Assembly: GCA_944359015.1 (NCBI GenBank)
Contig: CALVSK010000002.1
Location: forward strand, 1 to 56,831
Direction of reading: 5' to 3'
DNA from: an uncultured Bacilli bacterium
GTDB taxonomy: Bacteria; Bacillota_I; Bacilli_A; RF39; UBA660
DNA length: 56,831 nucleotides
The notes under the pieces were generated by a model. That model was not told the origin of the DNA. It was given only the letters and a program-made list of their open reading frames with translations, and did not search any database. Both the position numbers and the translations under genes were made by a program. Below, piece after piece: positions 158 through 38,020 of the stretch; within the stretch, counting starts at the first letter, position 1, and every line of letters begins with the position of its first letter.

Positions 158-1267
158 TTAATTTATTCTAAATGGGTCACTGCTTGTTCCAGAACCGCTG
201 ATAAAGGTTGTTGAATGTATTAGATAGAAGCAAGGACGTGCCACATTCGACATGTATACTGGAAAATAATGTAAACTTCCTGTCGAATACACTGAATACG
301 CGTATTCATTACCAGAATTATAATTAGAAATTGTCCATTCATTGGTTTCTAAATATAGCCAATTTGAGTTTATTGCTGCATTATATGCATATAATGCAGT
401 TGCCCAATAATTTGGACTTGCTGCAAATCCATAATCACTTACATACATTAATCCTATTTTCATAATATCTGTTGCGCTACTACTATTTACGCCTAATTCC
501 ATATTGTAATATTGTTTAGCTGTGTAAGTGTTATCTCTAGCCATTCCTCCAACTTTCCATGTATGAGTTGCTATTTTGTTTTGCCATGTTGTACTTAATG
601 TATTGTAGTATGTTGTATTTAATGTATTTCTTATATCAGATGTACTCCATGTATTTACATTTTCACTATCCCACTCATAGCTTCCATAACTTGTCGAATT
701 AATTAATTTTACTTTATCATCAAACACTCCAATAATGCGATATAAATTATCACTCGAGCAAACTTCATCACAGCTTCCAAAACATACATAATTATTCGGG
801 TTCGCTCCTGCATATCGATAACTATTATCTTCTGCACTATTCGCTAAACTAGAATCATGATAATACATTCCATTTTCTCCTTGAAATGTATACAAATTTT
901 TTATATAATCAGCAAAATACATTATCTCTGGTTCTTTATCAAAGTACACATAGCACTTATCACTTTTATTTGTTTGCATTATTATTCTTTTTGTTTCTTC
1001 ATTCCAAGAAAGTGTTCCACCATTTTCACATTTAGATAATCTTTCATTAAATATATAACCTGAACTTGGCCACGAAGTATCATTTGAAATTTGGTATTTA
1101 CCACTACCAGCTTCTGTTTCATAAAGCATGCTTATGGCATTTGATGAAACAATATTATTAATTTTTTCGGATTTTAAAACCTCATTTTCTTCTTTTGGTA
1201 TAATTGTTTTTATAAATATGCATACTAATATTATTAAAAAAATAATACAAATTTTAAAATACTTCAT
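158..1267 (-). CDS. Membrane-anchored surface protein, paralog P1 of a 4-member family (copy without a hypervariable patch)
   Basis: 369-aa ORF with an N-terminal TM segment (FKICIIFLIILVCIFI). It shares YYHD..SAEDNSYRYAGANPNNYVCFGS..NLYRIIGVF..WSTSDIR.TLNTTYYN.LS..WQNKIATHTWKVGGMA..IGLMYVSDYGF..NWLYL..EWT...ARP.FYL..SG.GT..P.RI with ORFs 13974-15404 and 36560-38020. Confidence 0.8.
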   Translation of the reverse strand: MKYFKICIIFLIILVCIFIKTIIPKEENEVLKSEKINNIVSSNAISMLYETEAGSGKYQISNDTSWPSSGYIFNERLSKCENGGTLSWNEETKRIIMQTNKSDKCYVYFDKEPEIMYFADYIKNLYTFQGENGMYYHDSSLANSAEDNSYRYAGANPNNYVCFGSCDEVCSSDNLYRIIGVFDDKVKLINSTSYGSYEWDSENVNTWSTSDIRNTLNTTYYNTLSTTWQNKIATHTWKVGGMARDNTYTAKQYYNMELGVNSSSATDIMKIGLMYVSDYGFAASPNYWATALYAYNAAINSNWLYLETNEWTISNYNSGNEYAYSVYSTGSLHYFPVYMSNVARPCFYLIHSTTFISGSGTSSDPFRIN

Positions 1268-13910: not shown

Positions 13911-14066
13911 TTTATGTTGATAACTCGCGGACCCTCGCCGTTTTAGATGCGGCGAGGGCTTTTGTTTCTCCTTCTAACTTATTTTATACGGATTACTCTC
14001 TGTTCCATCTCCACTAACATATGTGACATTAGAGTTTAGATAAAAGACTGGTCTGGCCGAATAGCC
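13911..14066 (-). repeat. Near-identical 3' module shared by P2 and P3 (gene tail, stop codon, GC hairpin and about 20 nt beyond)
   Basis: 13911-14066 aligns with 36498-36652 with only a handful of substitutions and one 1-nt indel, by eye. It includes TTTATGTTGATAACTCGCG, the hairpin, and codons for GYSARPVFYLNSNVTYVSGDGTE.NPY.IS. Confidence 0.85.
13932..13958. other. GC-rich 9-bp-stem hairpin downstream of P2
   Basis: CCCTCGCCG-N9-CGGCGAGGG. The T-run lies on the plus-strand side only, which is the wrong side for terminating the minus-strand gene. The same stem with a different loop occurs at 36518-36544. Confidence 0.8.
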
Positions 14067-15404
14067 ATTGTTCGCGCTGAAGTCGTACAAGCTGCCGTTG
14101 ATGTACAGACAGAAAACAATACTACTATCCGACGAATGCGGAGTAATTGTCCATTCATAATCGCCTAAATATAGCCAATTATTACCACTATATAAATCTG
14201 AATAAAAATAATCATATAACGGGATTGTCCAATCTGAAATTTCGGATGAAAATCCATAATCACTTACATACATTAATCCTATTTTCATACTGTCTGTTGT
14301 ACTACTTGAACTACTTCCTACTTCTGTATCATAATATTGTTTTGCTGTATTTGTGTCACTCCAAGCCATTCCTCCGACTTTCCAAGTATGTGTTGCTATT
14401 TTGTTTTGCCATGTTTCACTTAATGTATTGTAATATGTGGTATTTAATGTCGTTCTTATATCTGACGTACTCCATGTATTGCTTCCGCTACTTGCCCATG
14501 CATAATCTCCATAACTTGTTGACTTTATTAGTTTTACTTCACTCCCAAAAACTCCAATTATTCGGTATAAGTTATCACTTGGACAAGTTTCTGCATCACT
14601 GCCAAAGCATACATAATTATTTGGATTTGCTCCAGCATACCTATAACTATTATCTCCTGCACTGTTTGATAAATTTGCATCATGATAATATAAACCATTT
14701 GAACCATCTGTATATGTACTTATTATATAATCTGCAAAAGTTTCTTTATGTTCTTCTTTTTGAATTTGAATTTCTGTAATCAATCTTTTACCAAAATTTA
14801 AAGATTGGTCAAAACTAAGATTTAAGTATGTCAATTTAAAATTCCAAGTTTGAGTTGTTGCGGTTTTGCTAGAATTTGAAGTTATTGTATAGGAATTTGC
14901 AACAGTAAATAAACCTGTTTTAGTTGTAATGTCAAATCCTGATACACCATTAAATGTTCCATAAGTTAAACCATCAATATTTGTAACTTCGCTACCATTA
15001 GGGTCTGTTATTGTAAGAATAATTTCAGGTGTTGAACCATCTGAATAAACAAATGTGTTTGTTGGAATATTAAAATATACAAAATATGTATGTTCCGCTG
15101 TATTATTTGTTGTATTCGCTAAAAGTGAGGCACTTGCTGTTGTAGTAGATACTAAATTTGCACCATTTTCTGGCAATGTTGTTGGTGTTGCATCTATTTT
15201 TAACGGGTCCCCTACTGCAAATTCTAATTTATCAACATCATCACTATTTAATGTAACGTTTTCTCTCGCTTCATTAATGTTAGCTGCTAAAAATGCATAT
15301 GTAATTCGAACTACTAATACTAAAAATACACCTATAATTAATACACCTAAAAAATATAATATATCTTTTTTCTTTATTTTGTTTAGCAATTTCACTTGAC
15401 TCAC
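13974..15404 (-). CDS. Membrane-anchored surface protein, paralog P2, with a C-terminal hypervariable (DGR-VR-like) patch
   Basis: 476-aa ORF with a basic N-terminus and a TM segment (ILYFLGVLIIGVFLVLVV). The N-terminal half is unique. The C-terminal ~250 aa is homologous to P1 and P3. The start may be a GTG or TTG a few codons in. Confidence 0.85.
   Translation of the reverse strand: MSQVKLLNKIKKKDILYFLGVLIIGVFLVLVVRITYAFLAANINEARENVTLNSDDVDKLEFAVGDPLKIDATPTTLPENGANLVSTTTASASLLANTTNNTAEHTYFVYFNIPTNTFVYSDGSTPEIILTITDPNGSEVTNIDGLTYGTFNGVSGFDITTKTGLFTVANSYTITSNSSKTATTQTWNFKLTYLNLSFDQSLNFGKRLITEIQIQKEEHKETFADYIISTYTDGSNGLYYHDANLSNSAGDNSYRYAGANPNNYVCFGSDAETCPSDNLYRIIGVFGSEVKLIKSTSYGDYAWASSGSNTWSTSDIRTTLNTTYYNTLSETWQNKIATHTWKVGGMAWSDTNTAKQYYDTEVGSSSSSTTDSMKIGLMYVSDYGFSSEISDWTIPLYDYFYSDLYSGNNWLYLGDYEWTITPHSSDSSIVFCLYINGSLYDFSANNGYSARPVFYLNSNVTYVSGDGTESNPYKIS
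14067..14147 (-). other. Candidate variable region (VR) of P2
   Basis: The coding strand reads att act ccg cat tcg tcg gat agt agt att gtt ttc tgt ctg tac atc aac ggc agc ttg tac gac ttc agc gcg aac aat. The run of C/G-ending codons is atypical for this genome, and differences from P3 concentrate here. Confidence 0.6.
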
Positions 15405-21911: not shown

Positions 21912-23822
21912 ATGACAGAAGAAAATTTAGAAAAATTTGAAAAAAATGGTTTTAAAATCATAGATGCTAAAAAACTAGCCAAAGAATTGTATGGAAAAGA
22001 TTTAGATGAATTTATGGACAGATTACATGCTTTAAAAGAAAGTACGCGAGAAACTAAAATGTTGGATTTTTTTGCTGAATTTCAAAAAAAGATGGGAAAA
22101 ATTGAAGAAATAGTAAATGCTGATGAAATGGTTAGAGCTGGGAATCCAGAAAAACAGGAAACATTTAAGACTAATTTTAAAAAAGTTCAAAATCTTTTTT
22201 TGACTTTACAAAGATACATATCTGCTGAAGCAAATCTTGAAACACAGCACAAAAATATTATTGATGTATCTAAAAGAATACACGAAATAAATAAAGAAAC
22301 TAACTTAACAGAAAGAGAAAAAAACAAGGCAATTTTTGAACTTGTTGCTGGTCAAAAACCTTGTAGAGATGCTTATAATGATGCTTTAACAGTTTTAAAT
22401 GAGCAAAAAAGAGAACTTAAGGGTTTTAGCATTCTAGATATTAGAAATGATTTATTGAAAGAAATTAATAATCTTGATATATCAAGTAAAGAATTGGCAT
22501 TAAATGAAACTAGTAAAAAATCACTCGAAAGTATTATTGGCGAACTTAGAAATGATGCTGCTCTTTATGATTTAGAAACAGTTAAAGCAAGAGATGATTT
22601 TAATATTTTGTGTGAACAATGTGGTTTAGAGTATGATGCTTCTAAGGATTTAAGTCATGAATTGGAAGAACCTGATTTAGATGAACCTGCTAAAGAAAAA
22701 ACTGATTCTGAAGAAAAACAACCACAAGAACTCTTCACTGATGGGCCTGCAAACGATGGACCTTCTAATGATGGGCCTTCAAACGATGTCCCTTCAAATG
22801 ATGTCCCTTCAAATGATGGGCCTGCAAACGATGGACCTTCAAATGACAGACCTTCAAACGATGGACCTTCAAATGATGGACCTTCAAATGATGGACCTTC
22901 TAATGATGGGCCTTCAAACGATGGACCTACTTATGAAAATACTGAACCTGTAGGTAACAAAATAAAAGTAGTTGCAAAAAAATCTTGGGAATGGATAAAA
23001 ACACATAAAAAACAAATATTAATCGCTGCTGGTATTACAGCCTTAGTTGTTGCTTCTATAATTGCGTTTCAAGCTTTGATTCCTGCAATAACTTCTATGA
23101 TGGAATCTTCTTATATTTCAACTTTGAGTACAAGTATGGTTAATAATGGAATATTATGGCATAGTTCCGTGGCGGCTGAGCAAGCTGCTTTACATGCTGC
23201 CAATCAAGCTGGGGCTTCAATTATTAATGCTATAACTGGTGCTTCTACATCTTTTGATGCTGTTACTGGTGTTTGGACCATTGGAGGTCAATCTTTAGCT
23301 TCTTTTGCAAGTGCTGCTGCTGAGACTGCCGCTGTTGCTAGTGCGAAAGTTGCTTCCTTAACCGCTCTTACCCAAGGTACAGTTATTGGTGGCCTTGGAT
23401 TAACTGGTTTAGGTTTAATACTACCGAATGAAAAGAAATCAGCAGAATATAAAGAAATTGATAAAGTAATTAAAAATATTTCAAGAAATATCGATAATTT
23501 TCAAGAAGAAGATGTGATAAATCAATGTAATATGATAATTAATTACATACATACTTCTGTCCATTTAAGTGATAAAGAAAAGCAAGTTTTATTGAAAAAA
23601 GTTGAAAGAATTCTAAAAAAATTACAAAAGAAAGCCAAAAAAGGTAAAACTTTAAATAATCCTGTAGATTCTGAAGAAAATACTTTAGATGTACCAAATG
23701 ATGAAGAAAATATTGAAGAAGAAATTTTGGAAGAACCTGTTATTGATAATGATTTAGGAAATAATAATGATTTAGATGATCCTTTTGCTGATGAAGAAAT
23801 AACAGAAAGTTTTGGGAGGTAA
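21912..23822 (+). CDS. Element cargo: repeat-containing membrane protein of unknown function
   Basis: 636 aa. In order it has an N-terminal coiled-coil-like region, 13 NDGPS-type pentapeptide repeats, a TM helix (ILIAAGITALVVASIIAFQALIPAI), an Ala/Ser/Gly-rich segment, a second hydrophobic stretch and an acidic C-terminus. Confidence 0.8.
   Translation: MTEENLEKFEKNGFKIIDAKKLAKELYGKDLDEFMDRLHALKESTRETKMLDFFAEFQKKMGKIEEIVNADEMVRAGNPEKQETFKTNFKKVQNLFLTLQRYISAEANLETQHKNIIDVSKRIHEINKETNLTEREKNKAIFELVAGQKPCRDAYNDALTVLNEQKRELKGFSILDIRNDLLKEINNLDISSKELALNETSKKSLESIIGELRNDAALYDLETVKARDDFNILCEQCGLEYDASKDLSHELEEPDLDEPAKEKTDSEEKQPQELFTDGPANDGPSNDGPSNDVPSNDVPSNDGPANDGPSNDRPSNDGPSNDGPSNDGPSNDGPSNDGPTYENTEPVGNKIKVVAKKSWEWIKTHKKQILIAAGITALVVASIIAFQALIPAITSMMESSYISTLSTSMVNNGILWHSSVAAEQAALHAANQAGASIINAITGASTSFDAVTGVWTIGGQSLASFASAAAETAAVASAKVASLTALTQGTVIGGLGLTGLGLILPNEKKSAEYKEIDKVIKNISRNIDNFQEEDVINQCNMIINYIHTSVHLSDKEKQVLLKKVERILKKLQKKAKKGKTLNNPVDSEENTLDVPNDEENIEEEILEEPVIDNDLGNNNDLDDPFADEEITESFGR
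22740..22934 (+). repeat. 13 tandem in-frame 15-bp repeats (GATGGNCCTTCAAAY consensus)
   Basis: Read directly: gatgggcctgcaaac gatggaccttctaat gatgggccttcaaac gatgtcccttcaaat ... gatggacctacttat. Confidence 0.9.
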
Positions 23823-30103: not shown

Positions 30104-31807
30104 TTATTTATAGCCAAATAAAAATTTCTTATTGGGTATTATAAATTCATATTTTTTTATTGCTAATCCTGTATTAGGAACCCTAATGCTAATCTTATAA
30201 TTAGTAACATTTATCGTTACAATTTCATTATTTTCTTTTATTTCAAATTCAATATAATCTTTTAGGCATTGGTAACCTATTGGTGCTTCTACTTCTTTAA
30301 GATAATACTTACCTATTTTTAAGTTTTCTATTTTTATTTCTCCGTTTTGAGCAGTTGTTCCACTTGCTACTTCTTCATAGTTAGTATTATATAAAACAAA
30401 CTTTGCTTTTTCTAATGGCTCATTGTTTATATCTACTTTTTTAATAATTATGGTTCCTTTTTTATAATTATTTATTATTTCCAGTTCTTTATTTATAATT
30501 TTATTGTTTTTATTATCAATTTCTAAATAAATTTCATACTCTTTTATATTTTTTACGTATTCATTTTTTGTTTCTAGTTCTCTTATTACATATTTTCCAA
30601 CTTTTAAATTTTCAAATATTAAATATCCTGAAATATTGGTATATTTTTCATCTATTAAATTATTATGTTTATCATATAAGCCAAATTTAACATTTTCTAC
30701 AAAATTGCCTTCTTCATCTTTTTTTATTATTTCAATATTTCCTTTTAAAGGTTCGTTTTCAAAATATATTATAACTGGTTCTTCACTTTCTAAATCAAAG
30801 TATTTTTTTATTTCATTTATTGTGTAACCATCAATTATTTGATTTGTTTTTTCCTTAATATAATATTTACCTATTTTTAAATTATTTAATATAATTTCGC
30901 CATTTTTATCTGTTTTTTCTACGGTAATTAATTCATTGTCCAAATTATATATCTCAAAAATAATTCCTTCTTGTTTAATTGGATTATTTGTCTCACTATC
31001 TATTTTTATTATTTTTAAACAAGTTTCTTTAACTTCGTATTCTAAATTATAAATTATAGTTTCAAAATTCCCAACAGCCATAATATTTTGACTTGTTGGA
31101 TTAATATATACTATTGTTTTACTGCTATATTTATTGCTTGCTTTTTCTAAAGAAATATTATATTTTCCAAGTTTATCACCATTTATGTTTAATGCATTAT
31201 TTTCAATTTTTACATTATTATTTTCAATTTTAAAATTTTCTAATACATTATTATAATCTTTAAAAGTTTTTTGTTCTCCATACATTAATTCTATTTTATC
31301 AAAGACCGGATTTTTAAAATGATTATCTACTAGATTATATATTTCTTCTATTTCTTTTTCATATTTTTGATAATCTATTTCCCCACCAAGTTCATTTATA
31401 AAATAAAATTTTGAATCTTTATCAGCTTCTCTCCATATTAAAATTTGAGTTATATAGTACCAATAATCTTCTACATGATGCTTGTACATATACCCATAAT
31501 AAGAAATTAATTCTATTTTTTGCCACTCTTCCTCTGTAATTTTTAATATTTTTTCATATTCACCCATATATTCTTCATAGTCCATATTTGTATTTAATTT
31601 TACAAATGGTTCTAAACAATATACAAAAAAATTATCACTTGTTCTTCTTATAAAGTTTCCTTGTTTTTCTTTTCTTTCTCCTTTATCATTTATTTTTACT
31701 ACATACATACCTTCAATTTTACTTCCTTCATAAAAACTTTCTGCTTTTGCTTTATTTACAAAACAAATCATTAATAAAAATATAATAATAAATTTTTTTA
31801 TGTTCAT
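30104..31807 (-). CDS. Secreted thioester-domain adhesin with three Cna-B/SpaA-like repeats
   Basis: 567 aa with signal peptide ...VNKAKA/ES. The thioester pair consists of a Cys in VYCLEP and a Gln in ITQILIW (a TQxxIW motif). Three ...KID/KKD..G.P....F.LY......T...G...ENLK.GKY..KE... repeats follow. The C-terminal VPNTG lacks a following hydrophobic anchor. Confidence 0.7.
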   Translation of the reverse strand: MNIKKFIIIFLLMICFVNKAKAESFYEGSKIEGMYVVKINDKGERKEKQGNFIRRTSDNFFVYCLEPFVKLNTNMDYEEYMGEYEKILKITEEEWQKIELISYYGYMYKHHVEDYWYYITQILIWREADKDSKFYFINELGGEIDYQKYEKEIEEIYNLVDNHFKNPVFDKIELMYGEQKTFKDYNNVLENFKIENNNVKIENNALNINGDKLGKYNISLEKASNKYSSKTIVYINPTSQNIMAVGNFETIIYNLEYEVKETCLKIIKIDSETNNPIKQEGIIFEIYNLDNELITVEKTDKNGEIILNNLKIGKYYIKEKTNQIIDGYTINEIKKYFDLESEEPVIIYFENEPLKGNIEIIKKDEEGNFVENVKFGLYDKHNNLIDEKYTNISGYLIFENLKVGKYVIRELETKNEYVKNIKEYEIYLEIDNKNNKIINKELEIINNYKKGTIIIKKVDINNEPLEKAKFVLYNTNYEEVASGTTAQNGEIKIENLKIGKYYLKEVEAPIGYQCLKDYIEFEIKENNEIVTINVTNYKISIRVPNTGLAIKKYEFIIPNKKFLFGYK

Positions 31808-35510: not shown

Positions 35511-35918
35511 TTAAAATGATGCATAAATCATATTATTCTCTAAATATATTTTAACTTGCATATCATTAACTATATAATTTGTATCATCTTCATTTAATGT
35601 ATCATTTGTCATTATTTTATTTCCTGAGGCATCTGTTTCATCTGTTGTTATATAATTTTCATTTATTAATTCTCCAACAGTTTTTATAATACATTTAGTT
35701 TTAGTTGCACCATCTACAGTACAACTACCACTTAATTTATTTTTATTATCTTCTCCATAGTGTTTTGCACCATTTATTATCAATTCTTCTTTCGATTGCC
35801 ATAAATTTTTATTTATATTTTTTTGAACTCCAGTAACACTTACAAAGCCAATCACTGTTATGATTGCTATTAATACTATTACTGCCATTAATTCTACTAG
35901 CGTAAAACCATTTTTCAT
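35511..35918 (-). CDS. Prepilin-type N-terminal cleavage/methylation domain protein (type IV pilin or pseudopilin)
   Basis: The 135-aa protein begins MKNG/FTLVELMAVIVLIAIITVIGF, a class III signal peptide with Glu at +5. Confidence 0.85.
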   Translation of the reverse strand: MKNGFTLVELMAVIVLIAIITVIGFVSVTGVQKNINKNLWQSKEELIINGAKHYGEDNKNKLSGSCTVDGATKTKCIIKTVGELINENYITTDETDASGNKIMTNDTLNEDDTNYIVNDMQVKIYLENNMIYASF

Positions 35919-36497: not shown

Positions 36498-36652
36498 TTT
36501 ATGTTGATAACTCGCGACCCTCGCCGTTTTATAGGCGGCGAGGGCTTTGGTTTTTCCCTTTAACTTATTCTATACGGATTATTCTCAGTTCCATCTCCGC
36601 TAACATATGTGACATTAGAGTTTAGATAAAAGACTGGTCTGGCCGAATAGCC
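36498..36652 (-). repeat. P3 copy of the shared 3' module
   Basis: See 13911-14066. Confidence 0.85.
36518..36544. other. GC-rich 9-bp-stem hairpin downstream of P3
   Basis: CCCTCGCCG-TTTTATAGG-CGGCGAGGG. The stems are identical to the P2 copy and the loop differs. Confidence 0.8.
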
Positions 36653-38020
36653 GTTGCTCGCGTTGCTGATGTTCAAGTTGCCGTCGTGGTACAGAAGAAA
36701 CGCGCTATAACTGTTCGACGAATACGAAGTAACTGTCCATTCAAGATTACCTAAATATAGCCAATTTGTACTTCTAACTGAATAATAATTCGATAGTGCT
36801 GTTGTCCAATTACTATTACTTGCTGCAAAGCCAAAGTCGCTTACGTACATTAATCCTATTTTCATACTATCTGTTGTACTACTTGAACTACTTCCTACTT
36901 CTATATCATAATATTGTTTTGCTGTATTTGTGTCACTCCAAGCCATTTCTCCGACTTTCCAGGTATGTGTTGCTATTTTGTTTTGCCATGTTGCACTTAA
37001 TGTACTGTAATATGTTGTATTTAATGTACTTCTTATTGTTGAACTACTCCATGTATTACTACTTCCACTATCCCACGCATAACCCCCAATATCCGACAAG
37101 TTCATATTACCGCTGTATGTCCCAGTATCACCAATAAAATTTTCATAATTATCTATAGCTCCATATTCTGTGGACAAATAATCTGCTTTTATTAATTTTA
37201 CTTCATCATCAAATACTCCAATTATGCGATATAAATTATCATTTGGACAAGTTTCTTCATCTGAACCAAAACATACATAATTATTTGGGTCTGCTCCTGC
37301 ATATCTGTAACTATTATCTTCTGCACTATTTGCTAAACTTGAGTCGTGATAATAAAGTCCATTTTCTCCACCACCATATGTGCTTATTATATATTCTGAA
37401 AATGTACCTTCTCTATCATATGATTTAACAGCGACACCGGCATTAAATGTTTTATTCATAGTGGATGCATCAGTTACAGATTCATCTACATATAAATATA
37501 AATCATAAGTTGATTCACCTTTTAAGGGTATGGAATCATTGTATAATTTATAAATAGTTGAAAAAGTTCCATTTATTCCATTGTTATATTGTGTTTGTTC
37601 TTCAGCTGTAAATTCACTTATAGCATTTGTGGCATTAGATAAAATTCCTTCTGTTAAAATATCTTTAGAGTTATTTTTAGTTATTATATAATGAATATTT
37701 GATGCATCTAAAGTATTTGTATTTAAAGTAGCTAAATAAAGATTAAATCCTACATAATTTTCACATGAACTTGTTACAGTGAATGTATATGGTGTAGTTT
37801 GTAATGCTTTATTCTTGCTCATAGGATATGTATTATTTAAATCTATTGATACATCTGTATCTTCTAATGTTATTTTGGCACAACTTTGTAGTGTTACTTC
37901 TGTTACTGATTCTGTATCTATACCTGGCCTCATAAAAGAGTAAGTAACTCCTAAAACTATTGTTATAATTATTAATACTGAAATGATACTTAATAGTATA
38001 ATTCTTGTTCTTGGTTTCAT
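36560..38020 (-). CDS. Membrane-anchored surface protein, paralog P3, with a C-terminal hypervariable (DGR-VR-like) patch
   Basis: 486 aa with TM segment IILLSIISVLIIITIVLGV and a unique beta-rich N-terminal half. The C-terminal half is homologous to P1 and P2, with stretches of near-identical DNA to P2. Confidence 0.85.
   Translation of the reverse strand: MKPRTRIILLSIISVLIIITIVLGVTYSFMRPGIDTESVTEVTLQSCAKITLEDTDVSIDLNNTYPMSKNKALQTTPYTFTVTSSCENYVGFNLYLATLNTNTLDASNIHYIITKNNSKDILTEGILSNATNAISEFTAEEQTQYNNGINGTFSTIYKLYNDSIPLKGESTYDLYLYVDESVTDASTMNKTFNAGVAVKSYDREGTFSEYIISTYGGGENGLYYHDSSLANSAEDNSYRYAGADPNNYVCFGSDEETCPNDNLYRIIGVFDDEVKLIKADYLSTEYGAIDNYENFIGDTGTYSGNMNLSDIGGYAWDSGSSNTWSSSTIRSTLNTTYYSTLSATWQNKIATHTWKVGEMAWSDTNTAKQYYDIEVGSSSSSTTDSMKIGLMYVSDFGFAASNSNWTTALSNYYSVRSTNWLYLGNLEWTVTSYSSNSYSAFLLYHDGNLNISNASNGYSARPVFYLNSNVTYVSGDGTENNPYRIS
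36653..36733 (-). other. Candidate variable region (VR) of P3
   Basis: The coding strand reads gtt act tcg tat tcg tcg aac agt tat agc gcg ttt ctt ctg tac cac gac ggc aac ttg aac atc agc aac gcg agc aac. Confidence 0.6.

Follow-up and report, generated by a model that had tools for sequence, protein, structure and literature searches.

Two GC-rich patches at the 3' ends of paralogous surface protein genes in a 56,831-nucleotide stretch of DNA from an uncultured Bacilli bacterium (contig CALVSK010000002.1; the whole 56.8 kb stretch, with 25.6 % GC, is termed the window) carry the marks of variable regions (VRs) of a diversity-generating retroelement (DGR). The patches in the genes, here termed P2 and P3, are considered genuine DGR variable regions on non-adjacent targets, a reading that is given a probability of roughly 85 %; they are probably static at present, and their cassette either is located in another part of the genome or was lost. 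A preliminary description of the window, made from the letters alone, had proposed a DGR-type hypervariable patch at the C-terminus of P2, with P3 as a second copy and P1 as a paralogue without it. The three paralogous genes and the VRs, the latter with a sequence resembling an initiation of mutagenic homing (IMH) element, are located as follows:

158 to 1267, minus strand: P1, a VR-less paralogue without the GC patch, the hairpin or the motif GCGAGTTATCAACA.
13974 to 15404, minus strand: P2, a surface protein of 476 amino acids with a membrane anchor or signal at its N-terminus and DUF6273 at its C-terminus; proposed DGR target gene.
14046 to 14144, minus strand: VR of P2, 99 nt, with the IMH-like 21-mer at 14046-14066 and the clearest DGR signature in the 3' 52 nt (14054-14105).
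36560 to 38020, minus strand: P3, a 486-amino acid paralogue of P2; proposed second DGR target gene, 22.6 kb from P2.
36632 to 36730, minus strand: VR of P3, 99 nt, with the IMH-like 21-mer at 36632-36652.

The minus-strand sequence of positions 14046-14150 reads exactly as the preliminary description gave it, including thirteen consecutive P2 codons ending in C or G, and an alignment of the three 3' ends bears out its statement that P1 has ordinary AT-rich sequence at the homologous position. The GC-rich patch itself was upheld, but the VR is longer than had been described and reaches further 5', comprising the 99 nt from 14046 to 14144 in P2 (up to 36730 in P3), the 5' 39 nt of which are noisier. 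The P2 VR has a GC content of 49 % and a GC content at third codon positions (GC3) of 64 %, and over the two 99-nt VRs these values range from 49 to 52 % and 64 to 73 %, respectively. By comparison, the GC3 of the whole P2 and P3 genes is 18 %, and the mean of ten housekeeping genes is 12 %. Both patches rank among the most GC-rich 60-mers of the window outside a tRNA gene, and in P2 as in P3 the end of the VR is separated from the stop codon by 69 nt. The 21-mer GGCTATTCGGCCAGACCAGTC occurs in exactly two copies in the window, identical in P2 (14046-14066) and P3 (36632-36652), with none expected by chance and no third copy in the window even when up to three mismatches are allowed. The invariant GC-rich stretch occupies the position of an IMH-like site, as had been suggested, but only part of the 21-mer is common with a template, because the homology between template repeat (TR) and VR in related species ends after GGCTATTCGGCCA, equivalent to window position 14054 and inside the 21-mer.

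The related species were reached through a scan of GTDB, with one genome per species and the invariant scaffold, bearing N at the variable positions, as query. The single match was a 3.5-kb contig (L001; CALVKK010000088.1) of an uncultured gut Bacilli metagenome-assembled genome, on which the 3' end of a target gene with its VR is followed by genes for a 151-amino acid MutS-like protein, a 118-amino acid Avd and a 354-amino acid reverse transcriptase (RT), the TR and a second target gene. The TR region directly 3' of the RT gene is ACTCCGAACTCATCGAACTCGAACAATGTGTTCAACGTGAACAACAACGGCAACTTGAACAACAACAACGCGAACAATGGCTATTCGGCCA, and the TR reads gtg AAC AAC AAC ggc AAC ttg AAC AAC AAC AAC gcg AAC AAT ggc TAT TCG GCC A, which is nearly identical to the AAC-rich template predicted in the preliminary description, but stems from a relative. 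The third scaffold copy beside RT and Avd genes that it anticipated exists in related species, but no TR with the window's own scaffold was found in the collections searched. The RT contains the motifs IGNQSSQ and YMDD and matches RVT_1, and the best PDB match of the relatives' RT is 8ub7, deposited as 'Reverse transcriptase' (E 3e-13), which we take to be the Bordetella phage DGR RT (bRT). The Avd matches Pfam bAvd (E 7e-8) as well as NCBIfam DivGenRetAVD (E 7e-11), neither of which reaches the curated cut-off, and the 151-amino acid protein has a weak MutS domain I hit (MutS_I, E 0.002).

Homologues of the RT number 963 at E<1e-20. One identical RT protein is encoded on contigs from ten human-gut samples, with the same TR and different VRs, and when eight VRs (those contigs and L001) are compared with their own TR, 127/272 adenines are changed and 0/456 other bases. 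As the changes between TR and VR are restricted to adenines and the VRs are new between samples sharing the same RT, the DGR of these relatives is a textbook case and evidently active. The six RT lineages inspected (P0007, P0006, P0121, P0042, P0024 and P0022) each have a different TR, none of which fits the window scaffold; this is far from exhaustive, as the RT family comprises dozens of lineages. The cassettes of the relatives lie among chromosomal genes (TruB, ParAB, SNF2 helicase), and their RT identity to the nearest phage RTs does not exceed 33 %. The TRs of L008/L009 (7065-7160, …AACAACGGCAAT|TCTGCC) and L063 (1838-1895, …AACGGCAAT|GCGGCC) are internally shortened by a deletion of about 30 nt, and template decay therefore occurs in the clade. 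The VR adjoining the shortened TR of L008/L009 is still full-length; L063 holds no complete VR. In L032-L036, from another species, a third, P2/P3-like DUF6273 gene (ending near 1013-1033) is located just upstream of the cassette and has a GC-rich VR-like patch, which varies between samples, mismatches the adjacent TR and may be an orphan or the target of a second DGR. Of the four genomes read at these loci, three (L032-L034) have the same VR in targets 1 and 2, and in L036 the two VRs differ. An (ACAAAC)n microsatellite forms the start of the contigs with the P0024 RT (L061 1-26; L062 1-30), shortly before the accessory gene.

The differences between P2 and P3 in the alignment cluster at positions 1-2 of NNC codons, which alternate with unchanged ctg, ggc, ttg and gcg codons, and the statement that the two copies differ almost only at such positions holds for 11 of the 12 differences in the 3' 52 nt. 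All eleven lie on sites that are adenine in the TR of related cassettes (hypergeometric p = 1e-4). Counted by site, P2 and P3 differ at 11/22 adenine sites and 1/30 other sites, and at 8 % of bases downstream of the patch; adenine-specific change therefore postdates the last common ancestor of the 3' ends. For the individual VRs, the L001 TR, a template from another species, served as the reference over the same 3' 52 nt. Relative to it, the P2 VR is changed at 8/22 adenine sites and 0/30 others (Fisher p = 4e-4) and the P3 VR at 6/22 and 1/30, while two strain alleles at the P2 locus are changed at 10/22 and 1/30 (L012) and at 9/22 and 2/30 (L014). The four window-type VR alleles keep one scaffold, with 34/40 variable columns at codon positions 1-2. 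The flanks had been described as differing by few substitutions, which is the case downstream of the patch (92 % identity between P2 and P3) but not over the 110 nt directly upstream, where it drops to 63 % and a 9-nt indel occurs, before rising to 93 % beyond that stretch.

In the 5' part of the VR, all four window-type alleles have AGT, CTG and NNT codons where L001 has TCG, GTG and AAC. This common codon pattern points to a lineage-specific TR, by which P2 and P3 would have been written and which would now lie outside the window or no longer be present. From the aligned alleles the cognate TR can be deduced to read, roughly, ACT CCG AAT TCG TCG AAC AGT AAT AAC GTG TTT AAT CTG AAC AAC AAC GGC AAC TTG AAC AAC AAC AAC GCG AAC AAC GGC TAT TCG GCC A, and the DNA pattern to expect in it is CTGAACAACAACGGCAACTTGAACAACAACAACGCGAACAAYGGCTATTCGGCC preceded by AGTAAT.

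Further features occur immediately downstream of both target genes:

13932 to 13958, minus strand: GC-rich hairpin after the P2 stop codon, with a 9-bp stem and 9-nt loop (DNA fold -12.2 kcal/mol, z = -3.5).
13915 to 13928, minus strand: motif GCGAGTTATCAACA, a 14-mer, after the P2 hairpin.
36518 to 36544, minus strand: GC-rich hairpin downstream of the stop codon of P3, equal to that of P2 in its stem and likewise with a 9-nt loop (-12.4 kcal/mol, z = -2.6).
36502 to 36515, minus strand: motif GCGAGTTATCAACA, a 14-mer, after the P3 hairpin.

Both P2 and P3 combine a GC-rich, IMH-like VR 3' end with a nearby target-side hairpin. The targets of the relatives' cassettes have a hairpin at the equivalent place, with an identical stem in L008 and a different one in L001, L010 and L033, and GCGAGTTATCAACA is also found 3' of the cassette target in L010 (5125-5138), the hairpin of which differs in sequence from those of the window. 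A role of the hairpin in target recognition is plausible by its likeness to that of the Bordetella phage DGR, which reportedly works in this manner. That the P2 hairpin is an ordinary terminator appears doubtful: it has no T-run 3' on the coding strand, and the terminator-like call belongs to the opposite strand.

The preliminary description had placed the patch where VRs sit in lectin-like target domains, and the domain could be identified as DUF6273, a published C-type-lectin-like DGR target domain. Against the Pfam DUF6273 model (PF19789; cut-off 23.5 bits), P2 and P3 score above the threshold (25.4 and 23.7 bits, respectively) and P1 just below it (21.7 bits); the P2 match, above the gathering score, has an E value of 1.4e-5. 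The structure of the C-terminus, prediction of which had been proposed as a check, was modelled confidently with AlphaFold2 for the last 199 amino acids of P2 (predicted local distance difference test, pLDDT, 90.9; predicted template modelling score, pTM, 0.87). In Foldseek comparison against the PDB, the best match was to the IgA peptidase of Thomasclavelia ramosa (9qa6), in its N-terminal DUF6273 domain (E 1e-6), followed by weak matches to classical C-type lectins, while among viral models many phage DUF6273 proteins (E 1e-10 to 1e-5) and, more weakly, DUF1566 proteins were retrieved. Targets with the VR at the C-terminus of DUF6273 have been described in Faecalibacterium prophages (PMC11792537), and DUF6273 DGR targets termed 'tentaclins' have a C-type-lectin-like fold (PMC10743442). 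P2 and P3 likewise have the VR at the 3' end of the target open reading frame (ORF), in a C-type-lectin-like fold. P2 is furthermore 34 % identical over its full length to the target adjacent to the cassette in L008 (3427-5124), which is located directly upstream of the Avd and RT genes.

The P2 locus in other strains was reached through the neighbouring PfkB gene. An exact-protein look-up of P2 gave no match, for which a differing start-codon call is the likely reason, P2 being called as 473 rather than 476 amino acids in other assemblies (L011). A homologue search with the P2 C-terminus returned only homologues from other species, at most 68 % identical, and missed even P3, though P3 is in the collection, so that this search was unusable for gathering VR variants. 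The one near-identical strain covering the P2 VR (L011) has an identical VR. Different VRs occur in the P2-locus alleles of L012 and L014, but because these alleles are also heavily different outside the VR, they represent old alleles and recombination and not fresh homing. In L015 and L017 (1-493), from two samples, a different, AT-rich paralogue without VR or hairpin is found at the P2 position, 15 nt from PfkB. The P2 locus is a replacement hotspot for P-family genes.

The exact P3 protein is encoded on eight contigs, and the six places listed represent six ENA samples. A RuvA look-up added contigs with the same P3 VR, one having other single-nucleotide polymorphisms in P3, and altogether every strain retrieved shares this VR, on at least nine contigs from at least seven samples. 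This fixed VR stands against the relatives with an identical RT, which have a new VR in almost every sample. In L006 and L007 the flanks differ from the window by 1.2-1.4 %, with no differences over the 1461-nt P3 gene, which suggests that the P3 allele was recently transferred or swept between strains; the genes flanking P3 in these two contigs have 15-29 mismatches per kb. In the comparison of related strains that had been advocated, the four alleles vary mainly at codon positions 1-2 but also differ outside the VR, and the P3 VR is invariant. Many metagenome contigs stop inside a P-family gene or directly behind it, at the 3' end of P2 and in mid-P1 (L012, L013, L016, L018-L020; L048, L050-L054); these breaks could be due to paralogue repeats or to strain or VR heterogeneity.

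P1 corresponds to 'target 1' of the relatives' cassettes by its N-terminal region and its neighbouring gene, and a divergent helix-turn-helix (HTH) gene precedes target 1 in those cassettes in the same layout as at P1:

1345 to 1590, plus strand: HTH_3 regulator gene, divergent from P1 and 57-58 % identical to the HTH genes of L023, L010 and L024.

The possibility of a cassette at this syntenic locus was ruled out, none being present there in other strains; a flippase gene and RelA are found downstream of P1 in every strain assembled. The window targets have housekeeping genes as neighbours, namely YetF/PfkB for P2 and Obg/RuvA for P3. The claim that the window has no RT and no template repeat was substantiated by tblastn and blastn searches, with no RT, Avd or accessory gene in the window (best RT E 0.57), and no RT is present within 10 kb beyond its left end in the strains assembled there. 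L063, from a sample that also holds the window species, was rejected as the cognate cassette on account of its shortened TR and 5-6 non-adenine mismatches.

A number of observations weigh against the reading of P2 and P3 as static DGR targets. Blastn searches of the window, for which the TR of the relative, the deduced TR and the spacer RNA served as queries, gave no TR or spacer RNA, and neither Avd, RT nor TR occurs downstream of P1 in any strain assembled. The window-type scaffold, which a cognate TR must match, is absent from the GTDB representatives, from two JGI metagenome scans (no matches in one, three TRs of other types in the other) and from two IMG/VR scans (no matches). The cognate TR and RT were not found, while the ENA and Logan assemblies holding the species lay outside the DNA scans, so that absence of the cassette is not established. 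Because no cognate TR was located, the adenine test relies on the template of another species. It fails in the 5' 39 nt of the VRs, where P2 and P3 differ at about six sites that are not adenine in any related TR; active relatives, unlike P2 and P3, have no such non-adenine differences, and the window-type 5' 39 nt fit none of the TRs found. With regard to stasis, the breaks that many assemblies have at the 3' end of P2 could stem from heterogeneous VRs in a sample, and consensus assemblies hide low-frequency VR variants.

The mechanism envisaged is that of known DGRs. The RT, together with Avd, would copy an AAC-rich TR into complementary DNA (cDNA), misincorporating opposite adenines, and the cDNA would replace the VR in the target gene, which would be marked by the GC-rich VR 3' end and probably also by the downstream GC hairpin. 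Positions 1-2 of about fifteen AAY-templated codons on the ligand-binding face would be randomised in this way, with the scaffold codons ctg, ggc, ttg, gcg and ggc tat tcg gcc expected to stay unchanged. The patches could conceivably have arisen with no retroelement at all, through ordinary divergence of paralogues, selection for diversity in a binding loop or gene conversion between P-family genes. Recombination clearly shuffles these genes, in that the P2 locus is a mosaic, with a VR-less paralogue in L015 and L017 and an L012 allele that aligns better to P3 upstream of the patch, and the P3 gene appears to have moved between strains. However, such processes would leave unexplained an island of 50 % GC with a GC3 of 64-73 % in a genome of 12 % GC3, the confinement of the differences to adenines of an independently found template (p = 1e-4), the scaffold shared with bona fide TR/VR pairs of relatives and the target-side hairpin common to the window and those relatives, and this explanation is considered very improbable. 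'Another targeted diversification mechanism', which the preliminary description had left as an option, is not needed. Rewriting of the VRs by a foreign DGR, carried by a phage, a plasmid or a co-resident Bacilli species, would accord with the occurrence of the RT/TR contig L063 in a sample that also contains the window species (ERZ17292904), with the sharing of the 3' half of the VR scaffold across species and with the L008 hairpin, which is identical to that of the window. Yet the mismatches between the internally shortened L063 TR and the window scaffold fall within only 17 codons, the relatives' cassettes have the chromosomal setting and the distance from phage RTs noted above, no viral contig with the scaffold was found in the IMG/VR scans and retrohoming requires cDNA made in the same cell, which makes a foreign source exceedingly improbable.

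As to the present state of the system, there is probably no ongoing diversification of the P2 and P3 VRs, and if they are static, it is slightly more likely that the cassette was lost or became defective than that it persists silently in another part of the genome. Tentatively, the lineage may have lost or crippled its cassette, leaving P2 and P3 as orphan 'fossil' VRs, once written by a DGR and now frozen. They would then change only through recombination between paralogues and transfer of whole alleles between strains, a combination that can be put forward no less tentatively. The shortened TRs of L008/L009 and L063 suggest that such decay is common in the clade, with VRs outliving their templates. 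A rather doubtful alternative is that P2 and P3 are live remote targets, which a complete cassette elsewhere in the genome still rewrites in trans, rarely or in unsampled conditions. Both VRs retain open frames, NNC codons, the GC-rich 3' end, the hairpin and GCGAGTTATCAACA, VRs at the P2 locus differ between strains (L012, L014), and the contigs of many assemblies stop exactly at the 3' end of P2; distances of more than 100 kb between RT and remote targets are documented, and a cassette is present in nearly every related lineage sampled. Continued rewriting is nevertheless difficult to reconcile with a P3 VR that is invariant over at least seven samples and strains 0.01-1.4 % apart, when relatives with an identical RT have a new VR in nearly each sample. 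The P2-locus alleles, heavily different outside the VR too, appear old rather than freshly homed, P2 and P3 still retain non-adenine differences in the 5' part that homing has not overwritten, and the cognate TR was not found in the window, the GTDB representatives or the JGI and IMG/VR scans. The earlier proposal of a remote DGR acting in trans is therefore retained in so far as the patches are DGR VRs with RT and template outside the window, but not as regards present action, with no cognate RT or TR found, an invariant P3 VR and 5' differences that go beyond one template.

Elsewhere in the window, a 636-amino acid ORF (21912-23822, plus strand) has a coiled-coil-like N-terminal half and a weak DUF1542 hit as its only Pfam match; about fifteen tandem 15-nt units encoding (D-G/V-P-S/A-N) at 22710-22964 are followed by a hydrophobic Ala/Gly-rich stretch, which is the source of GC-rich patches at 23156-23373. 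Between P2 and P3, precomputed Pfam matches indicate a 567-amino acid SpaA-domain (pilin-type) protein (30104-31807) and a small gene (35511-35918) with a weak N_methyl (prepilin-type) match.

The mechanism is not new; DGRs and remote targets are already known. What the window adds is a chromosomal DGR family of uncultured low-GC human-gut Bacilli that diversifies surface proteins with DUF6273, the genes for some of which are distant from the RT, and the contrast between relatives, whose VRs are rewritten in almost every sample, and this species, in which they are fixed, provides a natural system for the recruitment, keeping and abandonment of DGR targets. Metagenome surveys that require the VR to lie beside the RT miss remote targets (PMC8144416). 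The closest known counterparts are the Bacilli cassettes of the relatives (L001; L021-L030, L010, L008, L033), which have the same DUF6273 C-terminus, RP.(F/L)YL motif and GC hairpin after the stop codon, and a VR scaffold that equals that of the window codon for codon in the 3' half. The target architecture in L008 is that of P2, and target 1 with its HTH gene resembles P1 with its own. Their targets, however, flank a MutS-like/Avd/RT/TR unit and match the TR perfectly at non-adenine sites, whereas those of the window lie 22.6 kb apart among housekeeping genes, without a cassette and with an AGT, CTG, NNT 5' scaffold that fits no TR found.

TvpA targets of Treponema denticola end in a C-type-lectin-type fold. 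Remote targets were found for 45/372 DGRs in the survey of Wu et al. (2018), and the T. denticola DGR (TvpA family), with seven of them, is, as proposed for the window, a single chromosomal, non-phage DGR serving several dispersed targets (PMC5758913). In Treponema and other remote-target DGRs both RT and TR have been identified and VR changes are restricted to TR adenines, while the window has no template and a DUF6273 domain in place of one of the FGE-sulfatase or DUF1566 type. The targets of Faecalibacterium prophages and the 'tentaclins' (PMC11792537, PMC10743442) share the DUF6273 domain with P2 and P3, but are phage receptor-binding proteins encoded beside the RT, as opposed to chromosomal cell-surface proteins without an adjacent RT. 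The Bordetella phage BPP-1 DGR (Mtd, bRT, Avd) shows the same AAC-codon mutagenesis in a VR that encodes the very C-terminus of a lectin-like fold; as in the window, this VR has a GC-rich 3' element and is followed by a hairpin. It is phage-borne, whereas the system considered here is cellular, with an extra MutS-like accessory gene and several targets, and its hairpin is adjacent to the VR, where those of P2 and P3 are situated about 90 nt beyond it.

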